Positions 16,365-28,286 of a stretch of 64,000 nt of DNA are shown piece by piece. The notes under the pieces were generated by a model. That model saw only the letters and a list, made by a program, of their open reading frames with translations, did no database searches and was not told where the DNA came from. Origin of the DNA: a virus (taxonomy: Duplodnaviria; Heunggongvirae; Uroviricota; Caudoviricetes). Location: the IMG/VR virus record IMGVR_UViG_2537561935_000012, one strand, 5' to 3'. The position numbers and the translations under genes were made by a program. The first letter of the stretch is position 1. Each line of letters starts with the position of its first letter.

Positions 16365-19300
16365 ATGAACAAGCTATCTATGGGGGTGTTTCGCTGTTCA
16401 AGTGTCAGCGAAATATTGAAATACATTAGGGCAATAACATCTCACCGAGCGCCGATTAGATACGGCGTGGAAAAGGTGGAAGGCAAAAGCTATGACCGAC
16501 TACGCCGGGAGGCGAATCAGAAGGCGATAGATTTGCTTAATTCGCTGGTGGACGGCGCGACACTGACAGATGAACAGCGCCAGATCCTGGCTGGGTACAC
16601 CGGTGAAGGCGGCATTGGCGGGTCCGTCTCCGAATATTACACACCAAAGTCGATCGCTGAAGGTGTCTGGGAGATCATGAAGCTCTACGGCGCGGACGTA
16701 GGTAACACTCTGGAACCATCGGCGGGAACCGGCGTTTTTAATGAGACAAAACCGGTTGGTACGGTGATGACCGCGACTGAGATCAGCAGTGTTTCCGGTC
16801 GTATAAACCAGTTGTTACACCCGGAAGACAGCGTACAGATTTCCCCGTTCGAACAGCTGGCTATAAGCACGCCTAACGATTCATTCGACCATGTTGTGGG
16901 TAACGTTCCGTTCGGCGGTCGTGATAACACACGCAACATCGATAAGCCTTACGCAGAAGAAACGGACATGGGTTCTTACTTCATGCTCCGCATGCTGGAC
17001 AAGATAAAGCCTGGCGGATTCATGTGTGTGATTGTGCCGCCGTCCATTGTTTCAGGTTCAAACATGAAGCGGTTACGCCTGCGCCTATCACGGAAAGCTG
17101 AATTTCTTGGCGCTCACCGCTTGCCTACCGGTACTTTTGACGCAAACGGGACCAGTACAGTCGTTGATGTGGTGCTGATGCGCAAACATCCGGCAGAGAT
17201 GGCTGAGAAAATCCCCCTGGTGGATGAAGGCACTCTTGAATCGGCAAATGTGCTTTGGCCAACGTTTATTTCTGGCAAGTGGTTTGAAAAGGATGGCCGC
17301 CGGTTTGTTCATGGCACCCAGGAAAAGGGCTTCCAGGGGCGTATTGAGGTTCGTGCCGACGGTCAGATTGATAACCAGGCTCTTAAAGCGAAGCTGATTC
17401 ATCGTTTCGAAAGCCGTATCGACTGGTCTTTGCTCGATATGGCTGAACCGTCACCGACCGCAGACGTTGTTGGTGAAGGGGAAATGCGCCTGATTAATGG
17501 TGTATGGCAAAAATATGCTGGTGGTCGCTGGATTGAAGCTGATGCCGGGAAGGAACTTAAGATCGATGCTGCCAGTTATGGCGCGGATAGCTGGGAGGCT
17601 CTTCAGCGTAACCTGACTACAACAGAAGGCCGTCTCGGCATGACATTTACCCAGATGGCAAATGTCCGCGATAAGTACACCACATCAATCAGCGACGATA
17701 TGGTGCAGCTGGTGGACTGGATTAACAGCCAGCCTGAAAAATACCGTGAACGCTTGTATCGCGGGGCGATGATTGGCCGGATGTTAATTGAATATCAGGA
17801 CATGAAGGCCGCCGGGCATAGTGCTGAACAAATCGAACAGCAGCGCCTTTCTCTGGTATCCAGTTTGCAGGCAGAGATTGACCGTTTTGGTAACCCCGGT
17901 CGCGGTCCGATAGCGAAATTATCGGGGAGCGGTGCGCGCGCCTGGTTTGCTTTCCGTGGTGCAATTAAGCTGGATGGCACTATTTCTGACGAGCTGACAG
18001 GAAAACTGGTTACGCATGATTCCAGCGCCAGTTATGACTCCACCAGCTATCAGGACACCCTGCGTTATCTCTACAGTGATCTCACTCGCGATCCAATCCA
18101 GCTCGATGATTTCCGCCTTGCGTTTACCGGCGAACTGCCAGCCAGTGATGACGAGTTGCTTAATTTATTGGCCAGCACCCCTGGCATTGCGGTTTCACCG
18201 TATGGCGGGATTGTTCCGTTCGCCCGCGCCACCAGCGGCGACATTAACGAGATAGTGGCACCAAAACAGGAATTCCTTGCCACACTCCCCGACGGTCCAG
18301 TAAAGAACAACGTCCTTAATCAGCTGGCAGCGATCGAAGAGAAGCGCATCAAGACGCCAGCAGAGAATATCCGCTTTAAGCTCAATAGCCGTTGGTTCGA
18401 CCGTTCCGTCATTCTGGAATTTTTGCAGGAAAACGGCTATCCGGATCTTCGCTATGTGCAGTCAGTGCAGCTGGAAGGCGACGAAATGGTTTCTGACACC
18501 TATCACGGTGGTGATGGTCTGTTCGTCGGGCACCGATACGGTGTCGTCCAGCGCAAGGATAAAGAAACAGGCGAGATCCGCTACGAGTGGGATCGTAAAT
18601 CAGGTGAAAACGCGACCGGGTTCCCGGCACAGCTGGAAAAGTATCTCAATGGTGCGCGTATCGGTGGCAAAGATAGCGCGACGGCGAACGGCTACCGCGA
18701 GCAGATGGCACTGCTTGAGGACCAGTTCAATAAGTGGATCAAGACGCACGATCGCTACGATGAACTGGTTACCAAATACAACGATGTGTTCAATAGCAAT
18801 ATCCCGTATGAACACTCTGGCGATCCGCTTGGGTTGAAGGGATTAAGCGGTAAGCGCCAGCCATTTGATTACCAGAATAGCGAGGTGCGCCGACTGTCCG
18901 AAGATGGGCGCGGCATCCTGGGCTTCGGCACCGGGCTGGGTAAAACCACGACCGCGCTGGCGCTTGAGGCGTTCAACTATGAGAACGGTCGCTCCACCCG
19001 TACTGCGTATGTAGTGCCTAAATCAGTGCTGGAAAACTGGTATTACGAAGCAAAAGAATTCCTGAGTGAAGAGGCATTCAGTAACTACCTGTTCGTCGGT
19101 CTTGATGTGCTGATGGATGGCGATCAGATTCGCCAGGTGCCGGTGCTCGATGAGAACGGTAAACCTGTTCTTGGTACTGATGGCACTCCCGTTATGCGCG
19201 ATGCTCTTAAGCTGGCAGATGAAGCCACTATCACGGCGCGGATGAACGCGATCCCGCACTCAAATTACCGTGCAGTCGTGTTTACCAAAGAACAATACGC

Positions 19301-22300
19301 CCGCATTCCTCTACGTGATGACACCGTAGATGAGCATGCACAGGATATGCTTTATGACTTCGTTGCCGCCGGGCGCGTAGCCAGCGCAATGGATTCCGAT
19401 TCCCATCGCAAAGAGGCGGCGCGTCGCCGGGGATTGTCGGAGTATTCAGATACCGGTACCGAAAAAGCAGAGAAGTATCCGTACTTTGAGGATATGGGCT
19501 TCGATAGTGTGATCGCTGACGAAGGTCACAACTACCGCAATAGCTATAAAAATGGTCGCGAAGCGTCACAACTGGCCTATCTGCCCACCAGCGCGGTGGC
19601 GCAATCGGCGCGAGATATGGCAATTAAAAACGCGTACCTGATGAAAAAGAATGGCGGGCGCGGGCCGGTTCTCCTGACTGCAACGCCAGTCGTTAACACC
19701 CCGATCGATGCATACAACATGCTTTCTCATGTTCTGCCGAAGGAATACTGGCAGAACATGGGGATCTACGGTCCTGATGACTTCGTTAAATTCTTCGGCA
19801 AGACCAGGCTGGAAACGGTGCAGAAAATCAGCGGTGAAGTTGAAGAAAAAATGGCGCTGGTGGGCTTTGAAAACCTTGATGCGCTGCGCGGTATATTCCA
19901 TCGCTGGGTAACGCTTAAAACGGCGGAAGACGTTAAGGATACCGTGGAGATCCCGGAGCTGGACGAACACCAGCAGGATGCACCACTTACTGAAGAACAA
20001 CTGGCGGCGTATGAAGAATTGCGTCAGCAGGCGGAAGCGGCGGCAAAAGCCAACAATGGCGTTACGACCTCGGTCAATGAAGACGGCGTGATTGAGCACG
20101 AGAAAGCCCGTCCGATCTTCTCAATAATCAGGGATATGGACCGCGTATGTACTGACATGGACCTGTACTATCGCCGGATCACCTATCGTTTCCTGCCGGA
20201 GTACGCCGATGCGGTGCAGCAGCTGGCGGACAGTTTGCCTAAACAAGCCACCAGCGAAGACGACGACAGTGATGATTCAATCACGCAGCAATCGCAATAC
20301 TCCCTGATAGATAAGGGCGAGTTTATTCAGTTGCAGGTTCCGGAAGCGTTCGAGCAGGAAGTGAATAAGCGCCTGGCCAGGTTTGGCATTGACGAACAGA
20401 CCGTAACTCACCCCGTTACGCCGAAATACGCGAAGCTGATCGCCACGCTGAAGGAGTTTTTCCCGGAAGGGAAGCAAATCATCTTCACCGACGAAAAAAC
20501 GCAGCACCAGAAGCTCAAGCGCATTATCTGCAATGCTCTTAACCTTGAACCTTCAAAGGTAGGGATCCTGAATGCTCAGACGGTTGCCGAGGCAGGTAAA
20601 ACCGGTAAGAAACTGAAAGCGGTTAAACCGCCGAAAGAGTTACCGGATGAACCAACAGATGCACAGATAGCGAAATACAACGAGCAAATGGCTCTGTATG
20701 ACGCCTATATCGCGCAGCAAAATGAAATGTCGTTGGGCGGTCTGGAAAAGATTGCAGCCGACTTCCAGGAGGGCCGGACTCCGATCATCATCTGCAACAA
20801 AAAGGCAGAGGTGGGTATCAACCTGCATCGAGGAACGACTGACATCCATCATCTGACGTTGCCATGGACACCAGCCAGTATCGCACAGCGTAACGGTCGC
20901 GGTGCTCGAGTTGGCTCCAACCGTGCAAGCGTTCGCGTTCACTACTACTGCGGCAAGGGGTCTTTCGATGAATACCGATTGAAGACGCTGAAGCGTAAAG
21001 CAGGCTGGATCTCCGATATCCTCCGTTCAGATAAGTCGGAAATGGAGAACGCCGACGCCAATGACATGATCGAAATGCAGATGTATACCGCGAAGGATGA
21101 CGGCGAACGTCTGGCAATGATGCAGGTTCAAATGGATAAGGCGAAAGCTGCGAAACGCGCTCGCCAGAAAGAACAGGCTACTATCGACCTTCAGAATTAC
21201 ATCAAGGCGCAGCACGCAGCTGGCGAGGATGTGGAGGTACTTACCGCTGAATTAGAGCGAAGCAAAGCGGAACTTGAAAAGACCACCGCCGAGGTAGCTA
21301 AATTCAAACAGGCGGTAATGGCCAAAGCAGCTGATAACGCAGACTGGAAAGCCCGCTGGGGTAGCGTCCATCACACAGACCGTACGTTGTTAGCACAGTA
21401 TCGCGCGTCGTTGAAAAGCGCCATTCAGCGCAAGGCTAATATCTCTCAGGCCATCTCCCGCTATGAGAAATTATTGAACCGTACTCAGAAGGCCGCGACG
21501 GATATCAAACGCCTGCGCCCGCTGGTGGAGGATGCAATAAATAAAGGCATTCTGGATGTTGATCCTGATCTGGTTAACCATGCGAGTGAGTTCCTTGTTA
21601 TCGGCGATCGCTCATGGCGTGTAGGCCAATACTACGATTGTGCCGGTGATATCGTTCGCATTAAGTCGCTGGACTTCGACAGCCAGCGCGCAGACGTGGA
21701 GATCATCTTTACCTTCAAAGGCACCAAATCGGGTAACTGGGATGTGAAGACGCTGGATAAACAGGTGGATGTAACTCCCGATGAAGATGCTGTTATGCAG
21801 AAAATCAGTGGTGGCGTCTCCATCGCCGGGATTAACGACATCATTTCCTGTGACGATTTCTACCGTTTCCAGCAGCGCGGCATGATCAAAATCACTGACT
21901 CGTACGGCGTTCAGACTACAGAGTCAGGCTATAGCATTGATTTTGTTGGTACCTATACGGACCCACTGAAGCATGCGGTTTACCCGGATCGCCGTGACGG
22001 CGCGCTGAAGTCGTCAATTGCAAAATGGGTGCTTGGTATGATGTCGGAAGGGAATAACCGCCAGATCCGTTCGGCAGAAACATTCCTGGTTGAATTGTTT
22101 GGCTCCAATTATGGCGATGTAATCGCGTCATACGGAGATACGCTATCCCCTGAAGCAATTCAGGAGAAAATAGCGGATGCGATCGCCAGAATGCCGGAAA
22201 AAACAAGCCAGGGGGCTACTCGTAACGGGGATTCTGAACTTGAAGTCACCAATGCCATTTTCGGTACCAATGAGTTCCGGGCGTCAGATTATGAGATCAC

Positions 22301-23132
22301 CACAGCACAGTTTGGCACCATTGACATTTACAGCAATAAAGCCGAGATCAAGCAGGCAATGGACGCAGCAAGCGCGCGCATCGCAGCAGAACGGGAAGCC
22401 AATCTGAATCATGCAGTCGCCGCGCTGACTCAATCGTGGGTAACAGCAATCAGGGAGGCCGCCACCACAGGGAAAATCACACCTGCAATAGCGGATGTCG
22501 TAAACGACGGCTCTAAATTTATGGATGCCTATCAAATGGATGCGGTGAAGTTGCCATCAGCCTATGGTCAACTCAGCTATCGCATGACCTACAACCTGGT
22601 ATCAATGTTTTCCGACCTTGCCATCCTTGGGCTGGTGGATCTTAACGAGGTTACGCCGGAATTGCTCAGCATGCGCAAGAATCATGTGGAGATATTGCAG
22701 AGAATTAACACGGTTCTTGCCGGGCGCACCGATGAAGAGAAACAGGCCGACGCTGATCGGATAAACCTGGCCCTTGGCAACATCACGGAGGAAGAGATTG
22801 CCGCCAGAAACGAGAAACAAGAAGAGTTATCATCAATACAGGGTGATGCCACCAGCATAGCTCAGTCTCTTGGTCTGAATTATCGCGTATCCACCGCCGA
22901 CCTGAAGATGATGTACGCACCAAAATTCGCCGCTGGCGAGGTATTTGGGCTTCAGGAAGCCTCAGGCATGAAAGGCGTTCTTTTCCGTGCGAAAGACGCA
23001 ATCAAGGCGAAATTCGGCGCTCGCTGGCTGCCAGCGAAGGCGAAGAACAGCGATTTCCCGGGTAACTGGTGGATTATCGAGACAAAACACAACGTGGCGG
23101 ACGTTCTGGCCGTCATCCAACAATACGCATAA
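16365..23132 (+). CDS. darB: Defence-against-restriction protein DarB: N6-adenine methyltransferase domain fused to SF2 helicase domain
   Basis: 2255 aa; N-terminal MTase motifs (EPSAGTGVF; VVGNVPFGG), helicase motif I GFGTGLGKTTTA, motif II VIADEGHNY, motif VI QRNGRGARVGS; same length as P1 DarB. Confidence 0.9.
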   Translation: MNKLSMGVFRCSSVSEILKYIRAITSHRAPIRYGVEKVEGKSYDRLRREANQKAIDLLNSLVDGATLTDEQRQILAGYTGEGGIGGSVSEYYTPKSIAEGVWEIMKLYGADVGNTLEPSAGTGVFNETKPVGTVMTATEISSVSGRINQLLHPEDSVQISPFEQLAISTPNDSFDHVVGNVPFGGRDNTRNIDKPYAEETDMGSYFMLRMLDKIKPGGFMCVIVPPSIVSGSNMKRLRLRLSRKAEFLGAHRLPTGTFDANGTSTVVDVVLMRKHPAEMAEKIPLVDEGTLESANVLWPTFISGKWFEKDGRRFVHGTQEKGFQGRIEVRADGQIDNQALKAKLIHRFESRIDWSLLDMAEPSPTADVVGEGEMRLINGVWQKYAGGRWIEADAGKELKIDAASYGADSWEALQRNLTTTEGRLGMTFTQMANVRDKYTTSISDDMVQLVDWINSQPEKYRERLYRGAMIGRMLIEYQDMKAAGHSAEQIEQQRLSLVSSLQAEIDRFGNPGRGPIAKLSGSGARAWFAFRGAIKLDGTISDELTGKLVTHDSSASYDSTSYQDTLRYLYSDLTRDPIQLDDFRLAFTGELPASDDELLNLLASTPGIAVSPYGGIVPFARATSGDINEIVAPKQEFLATLPDGPVKNNVLNQLAAIEEKRIKTPAENIRFKLNSRWFDRSVILEFLQENGYPDLRYVQSVQLEGDEMVSDTYHGGDGLFVGHRYGVVQRKDKETGEIRYEWDRKSGENATGFPAQLEKYLNGARIGGKDSATANGYREQMALLEDQFNKWIKTHDRYDELVTKYNDVFNSNIPYEHSGDPLGLKGLSGKRQPFDYQNSEVRRLSEDGRGILGFGTGLGKTTTALALEAFNYENGRSTRTAYVVPKSVLENWYYEAKEFLSEEAFSNYLFVGLDVLMDGDQIRQVPVLDENGKPVLGTDGTPVMRDALKLADEATITARMNAIPHSNYRAVVFTKEQYARIPLRDDTVDEHAQDMLYDFVAAGRVASAMDSDSHRKEAARRRGLSEYSDTGTEKAEKYPYFEDMGFDSVIADEGHNYRNSYKNGREASQLAYLPTSAVAQSARDMAIKNAYLMKKNGGRGPVLLTATPVVNTPIDAYNMLSHVLPKEYWQNMGIYGPDDFVKFFGKTRLETVQKISGEVEEKMALVGFENLDALRGIFHRWVTLKTAEDVKDTVEIPELDEHQQDAPLTEEQLAAYEELRQQAEAAAKANNGVTTSVNEDGVIEHEKARPIFSIIRDMDRVCTDMDLYYRRITYRFLPEYADAVQQLADSLPKQATSEDDDSDDSITQQSQYSLIDKGEFIQLQVPEAFEQEVNKRLARFGIDEQTVTHPVTPKYAKLIATLKEFFPEGKQIIFTDEKTQHQKLKRIICNALNLEPSKVGILNAQTVAEAGKTGKKLKAVKPPKELPDEPTDAQIAKYNEQMALYDAYIAQQNEMSLGGLEKIAADFQEGRTPIIICNKKAEVGINLHRGTTDIHHLTLPWTPASIAQRNGRGARVGSNRASVRVHYYCGKGSFDEYRLKTLKRKAGWISDILRSDKSEMENADANDMIEMQMYTAKDDGERLAMMQVQMDKAKAAKRARQKEQATIDLQNYIKAQHAAGEDVEVLTAELERSKAELEKTTAEVAKFKQAVMAKAADNADWKARWGSVHHTDRTLLAQYRASLKSAIQRKANISQAISRYEKLLNRTQKAATDIKRLRPLVEDAINKGILDVDPDLVNHASEFLVIGDRSWRVGQYYDCAGDIVRIKSLDFDSQRADVEIIFTFKGTKSGNWDVKTLDKQVDVTPDEDAVMQKISGGVSIAGINDIISCDDFYRFQQRGMIKITDSYGVQTTESGYSIDFVGTYTDPLKHAVYPDRRDGALKSSIAKWVLGMMSEGNNRQIRSAETFLVELFGSNYGDVIASYGDTLSPEAIQEKIADAIARMPEKTSQGATRNGDSELEVTNAIFGTNEFRASDYEITTAQFGTIDIYSNKAEIKQAMDAASARIAAEREANLNHAVAALTQSWVTAIREAATTGKITPAIADVVNDGSKFMDAYQMDAVKLPSAYGQLSYRMTYNLVSMFSDLAILGLVDLNEVTPELLSMRKNHVEILQRINTVLAGRTDEEKQADADRINLALGNITEEEIAARNEKQEELSSIQGDATSIAQSLGLNYRVSTADLKMMYAPKFAAGEVFGLQEASGMKGVLFRAKDAIKAKFGARWLPAKAKNSDFPGNWWIIETKHNVADVLAVIQQYA

Positions 23133-23165: not shown

Positions 23166-23606
23166 ATGGCCACACTATCTGATACAATAAAACCGAATAA
23201 AACATATCTTGAGGCGGTACTCCGTACAGCGTTGTTAGGAAAGACAGAAGACGAATACGTTGATTTCTTCCTGTCAGGGCTACGCGGGCGATTACTGAAA
23301 AACCCCCGCCTGTACCGCAGCTATGGTCCATACTGGCCGGAAATTAAAAAATTATTACTGGAGCGCGGTTATGGTAATTTCGGTCGTCTCGTTGACCGTG
23401 ACGTTCGCAAAATTTACCGTTATGACCGCCCGGCGCTAACACTCATAGCCGCGACGCTCTACAGCCAGGAGCGTTTTGATAATGGTCAGATATACTCAGC
23501 CTGGCATTTACTGCCAGTGCCTGAAGAAGTTGACGACCAGGACTATGAGTTTGAGTCTTACGATTTGGAAGTTGAAGCCTTGGCACAGGCTGGAGAGAAA
23601 ACTTGA
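23166..23606 (+). CDS. ulx: Ulx-like protein
   Basis: 146 aa immediately downstream of darB; synteny. Confidence 0.5.
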   Translation: MATLSDTIKPNKTYLEAVLRTALLGKTEDEYVDFFLSGLRGRLLKNPRLYRSYGPYWPEIKKLLLERGYGNFGRLVDRDVRKIYRYDRPALTLIAATLYSQERFDNGQIYSAWHLLPVPEEVDDQDYEFESYDLEVEALAQAGEKT

Positions 23607-23851
23607 AAAAGCGATACTACACAGTAAAGCATGGGACGCTACGAGCATTACAAGAGTTTGCTGACAAGCATAACGTTGAGGTGCGCAGGGAAGGGGGAAG
23701 TAAAGCTCTGCGCATGTACCGTCCGGACGGGAAATGGCGTACGGTCGTCGATTTCAAAACTAACAGTGTTCCCCAGGGCGTCCGCGATCGGGCATTCGAA
23801 GAATGGGAGCAGATCATCATAGATAACGCATTGCTCCTGAATGCTGATTAA
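23603..23851 (+). CDS. lxc: Lxc/Bof-like C1 co-repressor
   Basis: 82 aa, overlaps ulx stop; size and position as P1 lxc (bof). Confidence 0.5.
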   Translation: MKKRYYTVKHGTLRALQEFADKHNVEVRREGGSKALRMYRPDGKWRTVVDFKTNSVPQGVRDRAFEEWEQIIIDNALLLNAD

Positions 23852-23856
23852 GAACT

Positions 23857-23883
23857 CTCCGGCCTAGGGAGATTAGGCCGGAG
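23857..23883. terminator. Hairpin between convergent genes (candidate terminator)
   Basis: CTCCGGCCTA-gggagat-TAGGCCGGAG 10-bp perfect stem between lxc (+) and the SIR2-like gene (-); no clear T-run. Confidence 0.45.
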
Positions 23884-23892
23884 ATAAATATA

Positions 23893-25197
23893 CTATATAA
23901 ACTTAGATACAATATCGTGAATCTGTTGTAGCGGGATATCTTCCATCTCATTCTTAATAAGAGAGCGGTTAGATGCTGTCAGTGAAGGCCATTTTGTTTT
24001 CCAGGCTAGATATGCTCGCCATGAGTAGCCTGTTTCGTAAGGTTTATTCATATAAGTCATTGAGTGTTCAACCGCATGTATGTATTTTTTCTCAAAATTG
24101 GTTCCTTTTACTTCAAATAAACTACCGAAATAAATAAGCCATTTTGCCAGGTGTTCATACTGCTCCCATGCGCCAGGCTTTTTAGTAAGCTCTATTTTTT
24201 TATCTATTATATTACAAAAAACATTTAATACATTTTCATTATTCCAGCTATATCCAGATGATGAAATGGAGGAAATGATATGATAAAAAGAATCCTCTAG
24301 CTTCAAGAACTCTATTTTATACTCTCTTCCGTTTTTTATTACCGATTTGATTGAGTGCCTCAATTTGTCTTTTATTTTTTTTGCTTCTGGAATTTTATCG
24401 TTAAGTTTTCTAAAGAAATCAGATACCTCTGTTTTATCTATAACCCTAACCCCATAGCAGGAAAAATAGTAATCTTTAATAGGTTGCAATAGTTCCCCTC
24501 GGGAAACAAGGAAAATATTGGAGGACATTACGTTGTCCCGTGAAAATACCTTATATTCATTTATAATAGCCTTTAGGTTCGCGTCACTTAGAGAATAGCC
24601 AAGGATAACAATAGTGTTTTCATGTAGAACTGTGCTTAGTTTATTAGAAAAGTAAGAATTACCATTTATAAATCTGAAATAATCCTCGCTAGTAACAACC
24701 ATGTCTGATGGGGAGTCTATAGAACCGTGAACATGGTAGACTTTAACCTCACAATTATATTTTGGAATTGGCAGGCCGGGGGTGATTGTACAAGTTCGAT
24801 TCTCTCCAGCCAGCTTTTCTGCTAACTTGTCATAATTTGTCGTAATTACTTTAAATGTGTTTTCTTTGAAAAAGTCTTGAATATATTCAATTGATGGATC
24901 AAGTTCGATTGAGGCTATGATTTTCTCAATCTCTTGGTAAATATTTTTCCCCGAAAGTATAAGTTTTAGTGCAATAACCTGAGCAGCTTCTTCAAGGCTA
25001 AGGTCTTTTGCTTTTCCATCAGGAAATAATTCCTCTTTGAGTGAGTCACCATCCTTCAATAAACCGCACAGTTGCTCCAATAAAGATTGCCAACTTGGGG
25101 CTTTATCATCAGAAACAGCCTTTGAAAATCCAGTGCCTGTAAGAAAGCACAGCCTATGTGTAGCCGCTGCATAGGCAATTTCTATATACTCGCTCAT
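23893..25197 (-). CDS. SIR2-like (NAD-dependent deacetylase/NADase fold) protein with uncharacterised C-terminal domain; candidate anti-phage defence effector
   Basis: 434 aa, ATG with GGAG RBS. N-terminal motifs CFLTGTGFS (GAGxS-like), VITTNYD and VYHVHGS in the order and spacing of SIR2-family defence proteins. DNA is markedly AT-rich (about one-third GC in a sampled stretch) compared with neighbours. Confidence 0.7.
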   Translation of the reverse strand: MSEYIEIAYAAATHRLCFLTGTGFSKAVSDDKAPSWQSLLEQLCGLLKDGDSLKEELFPDGKAKDLSLEEAAQVIALKLILSGKNIYQEIEKIIASIELDPSIEYIQDFFKENTFKVITTNYDKLAEKLAGENRTCTITPGLPIPKYNCEVKVYHVHGSIDSPSDMVVTSEDYFRFINGNSYFSNKLSTVLHENTIVILGYSLSDANLKAIINEYKVFSRDNVMSSNIFLVSRGELLQPIKDYYFSCYGVRVIDKTEVSDFFRKLNDKIPEAKKIKDKLRHSIKSVIKNGREYKIEFLKLEDSFYHIISSISSSGYSWNNENVLNVFCNIIDKKIELTKKPGAWEQYEHLAKWLIYFGSLFEVKGTNFEKKYIHAVEHSMTYMNKPYETGYSWRAYLAWKTKWPSLTASNRSLIKNEMEDIPLQQIHDIVSKFI

Positions 25198-25253
25198 TAC
25201 TTACTCCATTTACTTATAGTTCTACGGAGAAGTATACCCTAATGCATTGACGT

Positions 25254-25895
25254 TTATAGATAATTTCCTTTTCCTGTTAATACTCCCTTAGGCACCTGTT
25301 TTTGTGCCAGCGTTTGGGTGCCGCGAATTATGTTAATCAGAGGGCTTAGTAACGATGGTTCCTGGCGTGCCTCAACTTCTCCAGCCATTGCCCTGATGTA
25401 GTCGGCGCTGGCAACGTTGTTGTATTCCGTCGCAAAGCAACATAGTAACGTCAGAACATGCTCTGTCGTTATTTCGCTCCAGTTGATGTTGAAAAATTCA
25501 TCGCCTTTTTTATCGTGTTCGGAATCGAAGATGCTTTGGTGGAGGATGTATTTGCCGGATTCCTTGCGCGGTAACTTGATTGCTTTCTGGCGTTCCAGCT
25601 CCTTATAAATCTGCATTGCCTCAATTAGTACCGGCCTGCCGTTCATGAAGGGATCGCGCAACCTTACACGCTGGCCAACTCGACCAGTAATAAAGCTGTT
25701 TTCCTCTTCCACCAGCACGATAAAACCCTTTTCCTCTTTTTCTCGCAATTCGCGCAGCAGCTGGAGTTCCATATCGCGGCGGCGTTCAGGGTAGCTGGTC
25801 CGCTCAGCCATTATTAGCTCATTGTTGATCCATGCAGCAGTCATTGACGCCGGTTTGCCGACGCTCATCGAAACAACGCATATTTTCTTATCCAT
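25254..25895 (-). CDS. Hypothetical protein, backbone-like GC; at the position of P1 mat
   Basis: 213 aa from ATG 25895 with AGGGGG RBS (track ORF extends to GTG 26042); same strand and 56 bp upstream of the SIR2-like gene. Confidence 0.45.
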   Translation of the reverse strand: MDKKICVVSMSVGKPASMTAAWINNELIMAERTSYPERRRDMELQLLRELREKEEKGFIVLVEEENSFITGRVGQRVRLRDPFMNGRPVLIEAMQIYKELERQKAIKLPRKESGKYILHQSIFDSEHDKKGDEFFNINWSEITTEHVLTLLCCFATEYNNVASADYIRAMAGEVEARQEPSLLSPLINIIRGTQTLAQKQVPKGVLTGKGNYL

Positions 25896-26084
25896 AGCGC
25901 CCCCTACAAAAAAGAAAAGCCACCAGCGGCGGCTTAGCAATACAACTGAAGGTAGCGCCCGGTACTCAGACTGTGCCGTCCATGGAATATTTGAAAAGGG
26001 ATCCATCCGTACCGGGCATGTGATGATTCTGACTGAAGTCACTTGTCAGTTGTCAATTATTTCAGATTAAAAATAATATATTTA

Positions 26085-26645
26085 TTAGTGCATGATGTTT
26101 GCCATCTCATAGGCGTCAGCCAGCAACTCCATCTCTGACTTGTTCAGCAAGGTGAATTCTTTCTTGCCTCCAACCACCCCATCGGCATGAACAGGGACCA
26201 GCCAGGGGGATTTTTCTCTTACTTCAGCCGGTGCTGCATGCTGGTGGTGCCATCTACAAAGGGGCAATTGCTTTTTGTGACAACCCGGCGCGGTACGACC
26301 GGAGATATGGTGCAGAGATACCTCTTCAGATATTACTCCATGCATGTAGCAGGCAATGCAGGGGAGAGCGCCAAGAGCATTGGCGATGCTCCGTTCCTCC
26401 GCTGTCGATGTTCGCCCCTTCAAGCCACGAGATTTTATCTTTACCGCACTTTTCCGCGTTTTGCTGGCTGGTGGGCGCTCTTTCTGTTTAGCGATACGGC
26501 GGTCGATAGAATCCCGCATTTTCTGATATTGCGATTCTCGCCAGGCGGGGTCAGCCAACTTTTCCCGTTGCCGAGCGATCGCTCGTTCTCTGGCTGCCTT
26601 CTGCCACTCGCGGCGCTGTTCAAGTTTTTGTTCGATTGTTTTCAT
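26085..26645 (-). CDS. ref: Recombination enhancement function, HNH endonuclease
   Basis: 186 aa; basic N-terminal region and HNH-like Cys/His cluster (CIACYMHG ... HH ... CRWHH); matches P1 Ref in size and position. Confidence 0.85.
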   Translation of the reverse strand: MKTIEQKLEQRREWQKAARERAIARQREKLADPAWRESQYQKMRDSIDRRIAKQKERPPASKTRKSAVKIKSRGLKGRTSTAEERSIANALGALPCIACYMHGVISEEVSLHHISGRTAPGCHKKQLPLCRWHHQHAAPAEVREKSPWLVPVHADGVVGGKKEFTLLNKSEMELLADAYEMANIMH

Positions 26646-27254: not shown

Positions 27255-28286
27255 CTAATCGCCATCTTCCAGCAGGCGCACCATTGCCCCCGTTTCACTA
27301 TCCAGGTTACGGATATAGTTCATGACAATATTTACGTTGGTCCAGCCACCAGCTTGCATGATCTCCGGTATTGAAACTCCGGCGCGGGCCATATCTCGCG
27401 CGGCTCCGACACGGGCACTGTGTCCAGACCAGGCCAGGTATCTCTGACCAGAGTCATCCTTAGCGCCGTAAATCAATCGATGAGTTGCTTCAAAAATCCC
27501 TTCCAGGGCGCGAGTTGATAGCTGGCTGGTGGCAGATGGCGCGGCAACACCATTTTTTCTGACACGGCAAAACAAGTAGTTATTCGGATCATCAGCCACA
27601 CCAGAGACAGAAATCCATCGCTCGACCAGTTTAGTTACCCCCAGGCTAAGTGCCTTCTCTACACCTGCGGTGCTAACCAGCGTTTTCGTTCTGCCAATAT
27701 GGATTAACATTCTCCCACCGTCAGTACGTGAGATATCTTTAACCCTGATCCTGGCAATTTCGGCTATACGTAATAGGGTGTTATAAGCAATCCCCAGAAA
27801 TGCCAGATTACGTATATCCTGGCAGCGATCGCTATTTTCCATGAGTGAACGAACCTGGTCGAAATCAGTGCGTTCGAACGCCAGTGCCTGTTTTGCACGT
27901 TCACCGGCATCAACGTTTTCTTTTCGGATCCGTCGCATGACCAGTGAAACAGCATTACTGTCACTTGGTCGTGGCAGCCCGGACCGACGATGAAGCATGT
28001 TTAGCTGGCCCAAATGTTGCTGGATAGTTTTTACTGCCAGACCGCGCGCCTGAAGATATAGAAGATAATCGCGAACATCTTCAGGTTCTGCGGGAAACCA
28101 TTTCCGGTTATTCAACTTGCACCATGCCGCCCACGATCGGCAAACGGACAGAAGCATTTTCCAGGTATGCTCAGAAAACGCCTGGCGATCCCTGAACATG
28201 TCCATCAGGTTCTTGCGAACCTCATCACTCGTTGCATCGACCGGTAATGCAGGTAAATTTTGGTGTACGGTCAGTAAATTGGACAT
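27255..28286 (-). CDS. cre: Cre tyrosine site-specific recombinase
   Basis: 343 aa; translation MSNLLTVHQNLPALPVDATSDEVRKNLMDMFRDRQAFSEHTWKML... ends ...RLLEDGD, the familiar Cre sequence; loxP lies about 420 bp upstream. Confidence 0.98.
   Translation of the reverse strand: MSNLLTVHQNLPALPVDATSDEVRKNLMDMFRDRQAFSEHTWKMLLSVCRSWAAWCKLNNRKWFPAEPEDVRDYLLYLQARGLAVKTIQQHLGQLNMLHRRSGLPRPSDSNAVSLVMRRIRKENVDAGERAKQALAFERTDFDQVRSLMENSDRCQDIRNLAFLGIAYNTLLRIAEIARIRVKDISRTDGGRMLIHIGRTKTLVSTAGVEKALSLGVTKLVERWISVSGVADDPNNYLFCRVRKNGVAAPSATSQLSTRALEGIFEATHRLIYGAKDDSGQRYLAWSGHSARVGAARDMARAGVSIPEIMQAGGWTNVNIVMNYIRNLDSETGAMVRLLEDGD

Follow-up and report, generated by a model that had tools for sequence, protein, structure and literature searches.

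What has taken the place of the EcoP1I genes of phage P1 in the P1-like phage-plasmid of IMG/VR record IMGVR_UViG_2537561935_000012, and what might the replacement do for the element? In the 64,000-nucleotide stretch of this element that was analysed (the window, numbered from its first letter), the gene order is darB, ulx, lxc, a 434-residue open reading frame (ORF), mat, ref and cre. The slot between lxc and mat is filled by a cassette with a single ORF, whose product combines an N-terminal SIR2_2 domain with an all-helical C-terminal region. This product is probably a self-contained, DSR-like abortive-infection protein that would act by depleting nicotinamide adenine dinucleotide (NAD+), carried as exchangeable cargo of an lxc-mat hotspot.

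A preliminary description of the locus, prepared from the sequence, had placed the gene between lxc and ref, at the site of the P1 restriction-modification genes. The correspondence with the P1 res/mod site is correct, but the interval is lxc-mat rather than lxc-ref, because mat, the 213-residue ORF, separates the SIR2 gene from ref. Homology to P1 and to RCS47 breaks off with the lxc stop codon (23851) and restarts at the mat stop codon (25254), and a megablast search against phage genomes matched the flanks only. The cassette is 100% identical to sequence in the Escherichia coli plasmid pg1-11_A. The SIR2 gene and mat are on the same strand, with mat directly upstream. The cassette was also said to be AT-rich and bounded by a hairpin on the lxc side, and both statements are borne out. 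Its guanine-plus-cytosine (GC) content is 35.8% (35.4% in the coding sequence), against 48% for the window and 51.7% and 46.7% for the two flanks, and GC at third codon positions (GC3) is 0.32 in the SIR2 coding sequence against 0.58 in darB. This is the lowest-GC 1.4-kb stretch of the window, about four standard deviations under the mean. The hairpin has a folding energy of -20.8 kcal/mol (z -4.75), and 0 of 200 shuffled sequences fold as well.

The SIR2 motifs quoted in the preliminary description are all present in the protein (RLCFLTGTGFSKA, KVITTNYDKL and VKVYHVHGS), and the Pfam family PF13289 (SIR2_2) matches residues 117-253 with an E-value of 2.2e-23 (83.4 bits, against a gathering cut-off of 24.5). 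The full-length AlphaFold2 model has a mean predicted local distance difference test score (pLDDT) of 85.5 and a predicted template-modelling score (pTM) of 0.84, with pLDDT mostly above 90 in the SIR2_2 domain. In a Foldseek comparison with the PDB, DSR2 is the top match (E 5e-12), followed by ThsA and KomC, and it is the SIR2 domain alone that superposes. The solved relatives found by sequence are the same three proteins, all of them anti-phage NAD+ glycohydrolases (NADases). Fifty-one full-length homologues (52-59% identical) were aligned, and T20, G21, T22, G23, F24 and S25 are invariant among them, as are T119-T120-N121-Y122-D123 and H155, H157 and G158. N121 and H157 align with N112 and H152 of ThsA, and N121 therefore corresponds to N133 of DSR2. 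The catalytic pocket of DSR2 includes N133/Y134/D135/H171, the counterpart of N121/Y122/D123/H157 (PMC11263360). The full length of the protein (positions 1-434 of 434) matches PHROG 7567, a family of unknown function, with an E-value of 6e-293.

The C-terminal part had been described as having no recognisable relative and as unlike a SLOG domain, and this assessment stands. In the AlphaFold2 model, a Rossmann-type domain (residues 1-255) is followed by a 32-residue helix (258-289) and then by an all-helical region with a generic alpha-solenoid fold. No sequence relative of this region was found in Pfam, PADLOC or the PDB, and neither a SLOG nor a Macro domain was found in it. An OTU protease identity was considered and rejected, the match (E 0.014-0.06) being under Pfam's cut-off and the fold being all-helical. 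A profile search for the domain among 1.84 billion cluster representatives retrieved 94 clusters; the full-length carriers are all 406-480 residues long with the domain at the C-terminal end. Ten hits (eight divergent proteins of full-length size and two fragments) were checked with Pfam, and in every one SIR2_2 precedes the domain. There is no sign of shuffling of the domain across the 94 clusters. Because this search met it solely behind SIR2_2, the C-terminal domain appears to be specific to this SIR2 family and not a module of other effectors. Its invariant residues among the 51 homologues include W344, Q346, Y347, W353, S379, M380, M383, G390, S392, W393, W399, W403, N410 and R411.

Table 1. 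Coordinates of the SIR2 cassette, its parts and the neighbouring backbone features in the window.
Feature	Coordinates	Strand	Basis or remark
darB	16365-23132	+	
ulx	23166-23606	+	
lxc	23603-23851	+	Backbone, left boundary
Inserted cassette in the lxc-mat slot, 1,402 bp	23852-25253	.	Homology breaks, low GC
Terminator-like hairpin, 11-bp stem, between the convergent lxc and SIR2 genes	23856-23884	.	Folding
SIR2-family protein coding sequence, 434 residues	23893-25197	-	Stop codon 23893-23895
All-helical alpha-solenoid, residues 256-434	23896-24432	-	Candidate regulatory or sensor domain
SIR2_2 (Rossmann) domain, N-terminal, residues 1-255	24433-25197	-	Pfam, AlphaFold2, Foldseek
Predicted catalytic His157 codon (HVHG motif)	24727-24729	-	Invariant, 51 homologues
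Predicted catalytic Asn121 codon (TTNYD motif)	24835-24837	-	Invariant, 51 homologues
Glycine-rich NAD-binding motif G21-T-G-F-S25	25123-25137	-	Invariant, 51 homologues
Leader, 56 nt, mat stop codon to SIR2 ATG	25198-25253	-	GGAG ribosome-binding site 6 nt before ATG
mat, 213-residue form	25254-25895	-	Backbone, right boundary; matches PHROG 1837
Pmat/LPmat promoter and C1 operator Omat	26026-26094	-	Identical to P1
ref	26085-26645	-	
cre	27255-28286	-	

Among characterised systems, DSR2 of Bacillus subtilis 29R (PDB 8k98 and 8wy8, among others) is the closest in kind: it is a single protein with an N-terminal SIR2 NADase, an N-Y-D...H pocket and helical repeats. It is also the best structural match, with a TM score of 0.71 normalised to 277-residue DSR2 chains that hold the SIR2 part alone. 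However, the solved B. subtilis protein has about 1,005 residues and the NCBIfam Dsr2 model 1,215 positions, against 434 residues here, and DSR2 has helix-turn-helix, helix-bundle, six-HEAT-repeat and C-terminal domains that form a cavity binding the phage tail tube, where the present protein has about 180 helical residues. No sequence match and no specific fold match links the C-terminal domain to DSR2. The NCBIfam models place the protein far below their equivalog cut-offs, with 30.5 bits for DSR2 (NF041819) and 21.2 bits for DSR1 (NF041818), each over the SIR2 part alone, the cut-off being 1400 in both cases. Its small size would make it a compact model for how SIR2 effectors are switched off and on, easier to handle than DSR1 and DSR2 (roughly 1,000 to 1,260 residues).

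ThsA of type I Thoeris (PDB 6lhx, 8bto, 7uxt) shares the TTNYD and HG motifs, a two-domain layout and a similar length of about 480 residues, but it has a C-terminal SLOG domain that binds glycocyclic ADP-ribose (gcADPR) and needs the TIR protein ThsB. The PADLOC ThsA model (E 9e-18) covers only residues 117-236 of the present protein, which carries no SLOG or Macro domain. The best PADLOC match is to PDC-S25 (E 6e-24), itself an untested single-gene SIR2 candidate, and this match likewise falls short of full length, aligning residues 100-247 with model positions 127-278 of 517. SIR2-HerA (Nezha), Lamassu LmuA-SIR2 and Kongming KomC also employ SIR2_2-type NADase effectors but depend on partners (HerA, LmuB/LmuC and KomA/KomB, respectively), none of which is encoded in the cassette or conserved around the homologues. 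The Halomonas locus (L005) does contain a HerA gene, but its partner is a DUF4297 protein, and the two form a separate system. The match to the LmuA model is confined to the SIR2 half (positions 21-221 of 433). Across PADLOC, the PDC-S25, ThsA, LmuA, Dsr2 and SIR2 models all match the SIR2 part alone. Judged by these model and domain comparisons, the protein belongs to none of DSR1, DSR2, ThsA, SIR2-HerA, Lamassu or PDC-S25. A SIR2 NADase effector in a mobile-element hotspot is a well-established kind of system; what is new here is the compactness of the protein, a C-terminal domain specific to its family and its prevalence in P1-like elements.

The single-gene status proposed in the preliminary description was upheld by the neighbourhoods of 22 homologue loci (46-61% identity) from chromosomes and IMG/VR viral contigs, a qualitative sample rather than a statistical test of enrichment. 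All-against-all clustering of the neighbours over these loci found no conserved family beyond P1 backbone genes, which come from the three P1-like loci. A TIR-domain ThsB is neither present in the one-gene cassette nor conserved across the 22 loci. In six of the loci both neighbours lie on the opposite strand, and the SIR2 gene is therefore monocistronic there. As for individual candidate partners, mat was rejected because it belongs to the backbone and occurs next to empty slots and next to other cargo alike. In Halomonas and Pseudoalteromonas the genes upstream of the homologue show no relationship to mat or to one another. DUF2971 genes stand beside two homologues, the encoded proteins being mutually dissimilar, and beside none in the other loci; these lie at L019:7407-8237 and L037:2934-3857, once downstream and once upstream, with no phmmer similarity between them.

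Defence genes are found in several of these neighbourhoods. The Idiomarina homologue (L020) adjoins Hachiman (HamA and a DEAD helicase) as well as an integrase, and the Halomonas homologue has DUF4297-HerA, HNH and HSDR_N genes nearby. PD-T7-5 and GmrSD are found in Vibrio cholerae (L010), PDC-S42 and a type I HsdR in Marinobacter (L009), and a NERD-UvrD candidate in Stutzerimonas (L019). Other copies occupy mobile-element positions: those on the E. coli chromosome (L001-L004) are at a prophage end with an integrase adjoining in three of four contexts, those on IMG/VR viral contigs are beside P2-like baseplate spike, Mu-F-like, Prim-Pol/AAA_25 and VapE-type genes, and some copies sit at the cargo positions of P4-like satellites. 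A context of defence-gene neighbours or mobile-element cargo hotspots is found, qualitatively, in the 22 loci, and the pattern is that of a stand-alone defence or cargo gene. The E. coli chromosomal homologue, near narP/ccm, is a 436-residue protein (56% identical) encoded at one end of a CPS-53/KpLE1-like prophage (YfdP, DUF2303), and it directly follows the integrase in L001, L002 and L004. Contigs with it number 42, the longest being a chromosome of 5.03 Mb.

The lxc-mat slot itself is variable, as the preliminary description had supposed in calling it a defence locus. P1 (NC_005856) has mat, res, mod and lxc in this sequence, with mod interrupted by IS5 and with res and mod oriented opposite to the SIR2 gene. 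EcoP1I is unrelated to the SIR2 gene: its two genes span 6.3 kb, and it cleaves DNA while protecting its own by methylation. What the two have in common is the slot and, presumably, the role of protecting the lysogen. In RCS47 the slot is empty, with 39 bp separating lxc and mat, and the leader of the SIR2 gene is absent. In vB_EcoM-673R5 and SJ46 it holds a RelA/SpoT protein and a second ORF that together match PADLOC PDC-S33 (toxSAS-like), in JL22 a PIN_12 protein that partly matches PDC-S34, and in Ro157c2YLVW an AraC regulator with an EAL-domain protein. Slot cargo of other P1-like phages lies at L015:1215-2314, L016:1214-2164 and L017:1191-2765.

The frequency of each occupant was counted in 5,426 complete E. 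coli genomes. The ulx-lxc marker of P1-like elements occurs in 674-699 of them, so that about one complete genome in eight contains a P1-like phage-plasmid. The present cassette (allele 1) was found in 69 genomes, against roughly 680 P1-like elements, and a second SIR2 allele, which takes up the same slot and is 435 residues long and 58% identical, in 62 (for example L018:1279-2586, on E. coli plasmid p1_025985). Either allele is in the slot in about 19% of P1-like elements. EcoP1I-type res occurs in 88 genomes, in 57 of them on plasmids, and the empty lxc-mat junction in 36; the SIR2 alleles outnumber plasmid-borne EcoP1I by 131 to at most 57. The two alleles share the 56-nt leader with one mismatch and the first 85 or so nucleotides of the coding sequence, and their 3' hairpins differ. 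Because of the variety of slot cargo and these genome counts, the SIR2 gene is an accessory and common gene in a true hotspot. Its acquired rather than core character, another point of the preliminary description, agrees with its absence from P1, P7 and RCS47 and its atypical composition. A missing SIR2 match, core-gene status and ordinary composition were each checked for, and none was found. The suggestion that the system is undescribed holds in the functional sense only, because the family is already catalogued in RefSeq and PHROG and is common. About 450 P1-like elements in the complete E. coli genomes hold slot cargo outside these counted classes, and the slot offers a defined, easily engineered hotspot in which further cargo genes may be found. 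Should the protein be an anti-phage NADase, phage resistance in clinical and animal E. coli would have a common determinant that has so far gone unlisted, which would matter for host-range prediction in phage therapy.

Variation within allele 1 may distinguish the two domains. Its IMG/VR variants differ by 0-16 residues, and in a variant with 96% identity 11 of the 16 replacements fall within residues 267-430. In one allele-1 pair, the SIR2 domain has 5 nonsynonymous and 11 synonymous substitutions, giving a ratio of nonsynonymous to synonymous rates (dN/dS) of 0.12, and the C-terminal domain has 12 and 3, giving a ratio of 0.97 (Fisher p 0.011 for the counts). This contrast, a hint only, would fit a constrained enzyme with a changing sensor. 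Synonymous sites are saturated between alleles 1 and 2, so no between-allele ratio was obtained.

The SIR2_2 domain, the single-gene cassette, the defence-type surroundings, the variable slot, the foreign composition and this selection pattern are consistent with a mechanism of the DSR type. The SIR2_2 domain would be an NAD+ glycohydrolase that is inactive in uninfected cells, and the alpha-solenoid would be its regulatory or sensor domain. During infection, a cue, most likely a protein of the competing phage as in DSR2, would engage the solenoid, and the SIR2 domain would then be released or would oligomerise. The active enzyme would deplete NAD+, and the infected cell would no longer support phage growth. 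By replacing EcoP1I in the slot, the cassette would shield the lysogen, and hence the plasmid, from other phages. The enzymatic activity, its trigger, its activation through the C-terminal domain and the abortive outcome are all inferred, and the reading as a whole seems moderately probable. A more ambitious version falls somewhat short of even chances: that this is the smallest self-contained sirtuin sensor-effector, that its solenoid directly recognises a phage component, and that its alleles, at least two in number, differ in specificity and have in sequenced E. coli largely displaced EcoP1I as the exclusion function of P1-like elements.

Several observations weigh against the proposed abortive-infection function. 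The SIR2 gene lies 56 nt downstream of mat, and the mat promoters of P1 are C1-repressed and late; a sigma-70-like promoter was looked for upstream of the SIR2 gene (minus strand, leader included) and none was found. Under control of the mat promoters and with no sigma-70 promoter of its own, the gene could therefore be silent in the lysogen and expressed lytically, which is the chief reservation about a defence role at this locus. The C-terminal domain was never met with another effector in the search of 1.84 billion representatives and is therefore not a demonstrably modular sensor, and its invariant aromatic and polar residues would better fit a ligand-binding or intramolecular interface than an arms-race surface. 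The dN/dS contrast comes from one sequence pair with 31 substitutions and could reflect recombination. In addition, a literature search found no paper on this SIR2 protein family.

The conserved C-terminal residues bear on a rather unlikely alternative, in which the protein is a ThsA-like receptor-effector whose helical domain binds a nucleotide-derived signal and thereby switches on the NADase, the signal being made by a protein encoded elsewhere or by the infecting phage. The conserved Trp, Tyr, Gln, Asn and Arg residues are on three consecutive C-terminal helices and would suit a ligand pocket, the SIR2 domain strongly matches ThsA models (the PADLOC model, and PDB 7uxt and 6lhx), and KomC is a SIR2 effector able to respond to nucleotides. 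However, the fold has neither the SLOG nor the Macro domain and is a generic solenoid, no TIR, cyclase or other signal-maker is conserved adjoining the gene in the 22 loci, and the cassette is without any second gene.

The expression signals raise a different alternative, also unlikely, that the gene serves the lytic cycle or counter-defence of the phage-plasmid itself and is co-expressed with mat from C1-controlled and late promoters. It might then consume NAD+ or ADP-ribosylate host targets, blunting NAD-dependent or nucleotide-signalling defences or stopping host metabolism. Read-through from Pmat/LPmat is a possible source of SIR2 transcription: the gene shares the orientation of mat at the short spacing given above, no terminator or promoter consensus lies between them, and Pmat, LPmat and Omat have the same sequence as in P1. 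The gene also has darB and ulx, which are anti-restriction genes, as neighbours. In contrast, full-length homologues are found outside any P1 context, within defence islands of chromosomes and at the ends of prophages, often as monocistronic genes; P1 keeps a bona fide defence system in the same slot; and all of the closest SIR2_2 proteins that have been characterised protect the host. These points weigh against such a lytic or counter-defence role. As to other signals, no Rfam family was found in 23500-26200. On the minus strand the leader can fold a small hairpin in which CUUCUCC pairs with the GGAGUAAG Shine-Dalgarno region, but it is weak (z -1.5 for a 106-nt stretch, not significantly above shuffles). 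A second terminator-like hairpin, followed by a T-run, lies at 25917-25935 (-), between Pmat/LPmat and the closely following mat ATG (25895); transcripts bound for mat and the SIR2 gene could be attenuated there.

It is similarly improbable that, instead of depleting NAD+ in bulk, the protein modifies one particular protein or nucleic acid as an ADP-ribosyltransferase or deacylase. Some SIR2-family enzymes do transfer ADP-ribose, and the RefSeq entry (WP_001471564.1), named 'SIR2 family protein', was later renamed 'SIR2 family NAD-dependent protein deacylase'. However, the classical sirtuin model PF02146 gives no match at E-values up to 1, and the CxxC zinc motif of the Cys4 zinc ribbon is absent from the 434-residue sequence. 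Because SIR2_2 is the sole match and the zinc-ribbon cysteines are lacking, the deacylase label is probably misleading. The gene is moreover mobile, AT-rich and patchily distributed, and its nearest relatives are NADases.

Frameshifted copies of the gene occur in two IMG/VR contigs, at about codon 275 in L031 and about codon 335 in L036, and PHROG 35181 (156 residues) is a family built of the C-terminal fragment. Dispensability of the kind that such frameshifted copies suggest is typical of costly defence genes. These copies and the fragment family, together with the phd/doc already carried by the same plasmid, were counted in favour of a selfish toxin that stabilises the plasmid, or of a passenger gene in decay and without current function, a reading made very improbable by the lack of an antitoxin partner in the cassette and the 22 loci, by strong full-length conservation across Gammaproteobacteria, where homologues at 46-61% identity keep the catalytic residues invariant, by purifying selection on the SIR2 domain, and by the intactness of most SIR2 gene copies.

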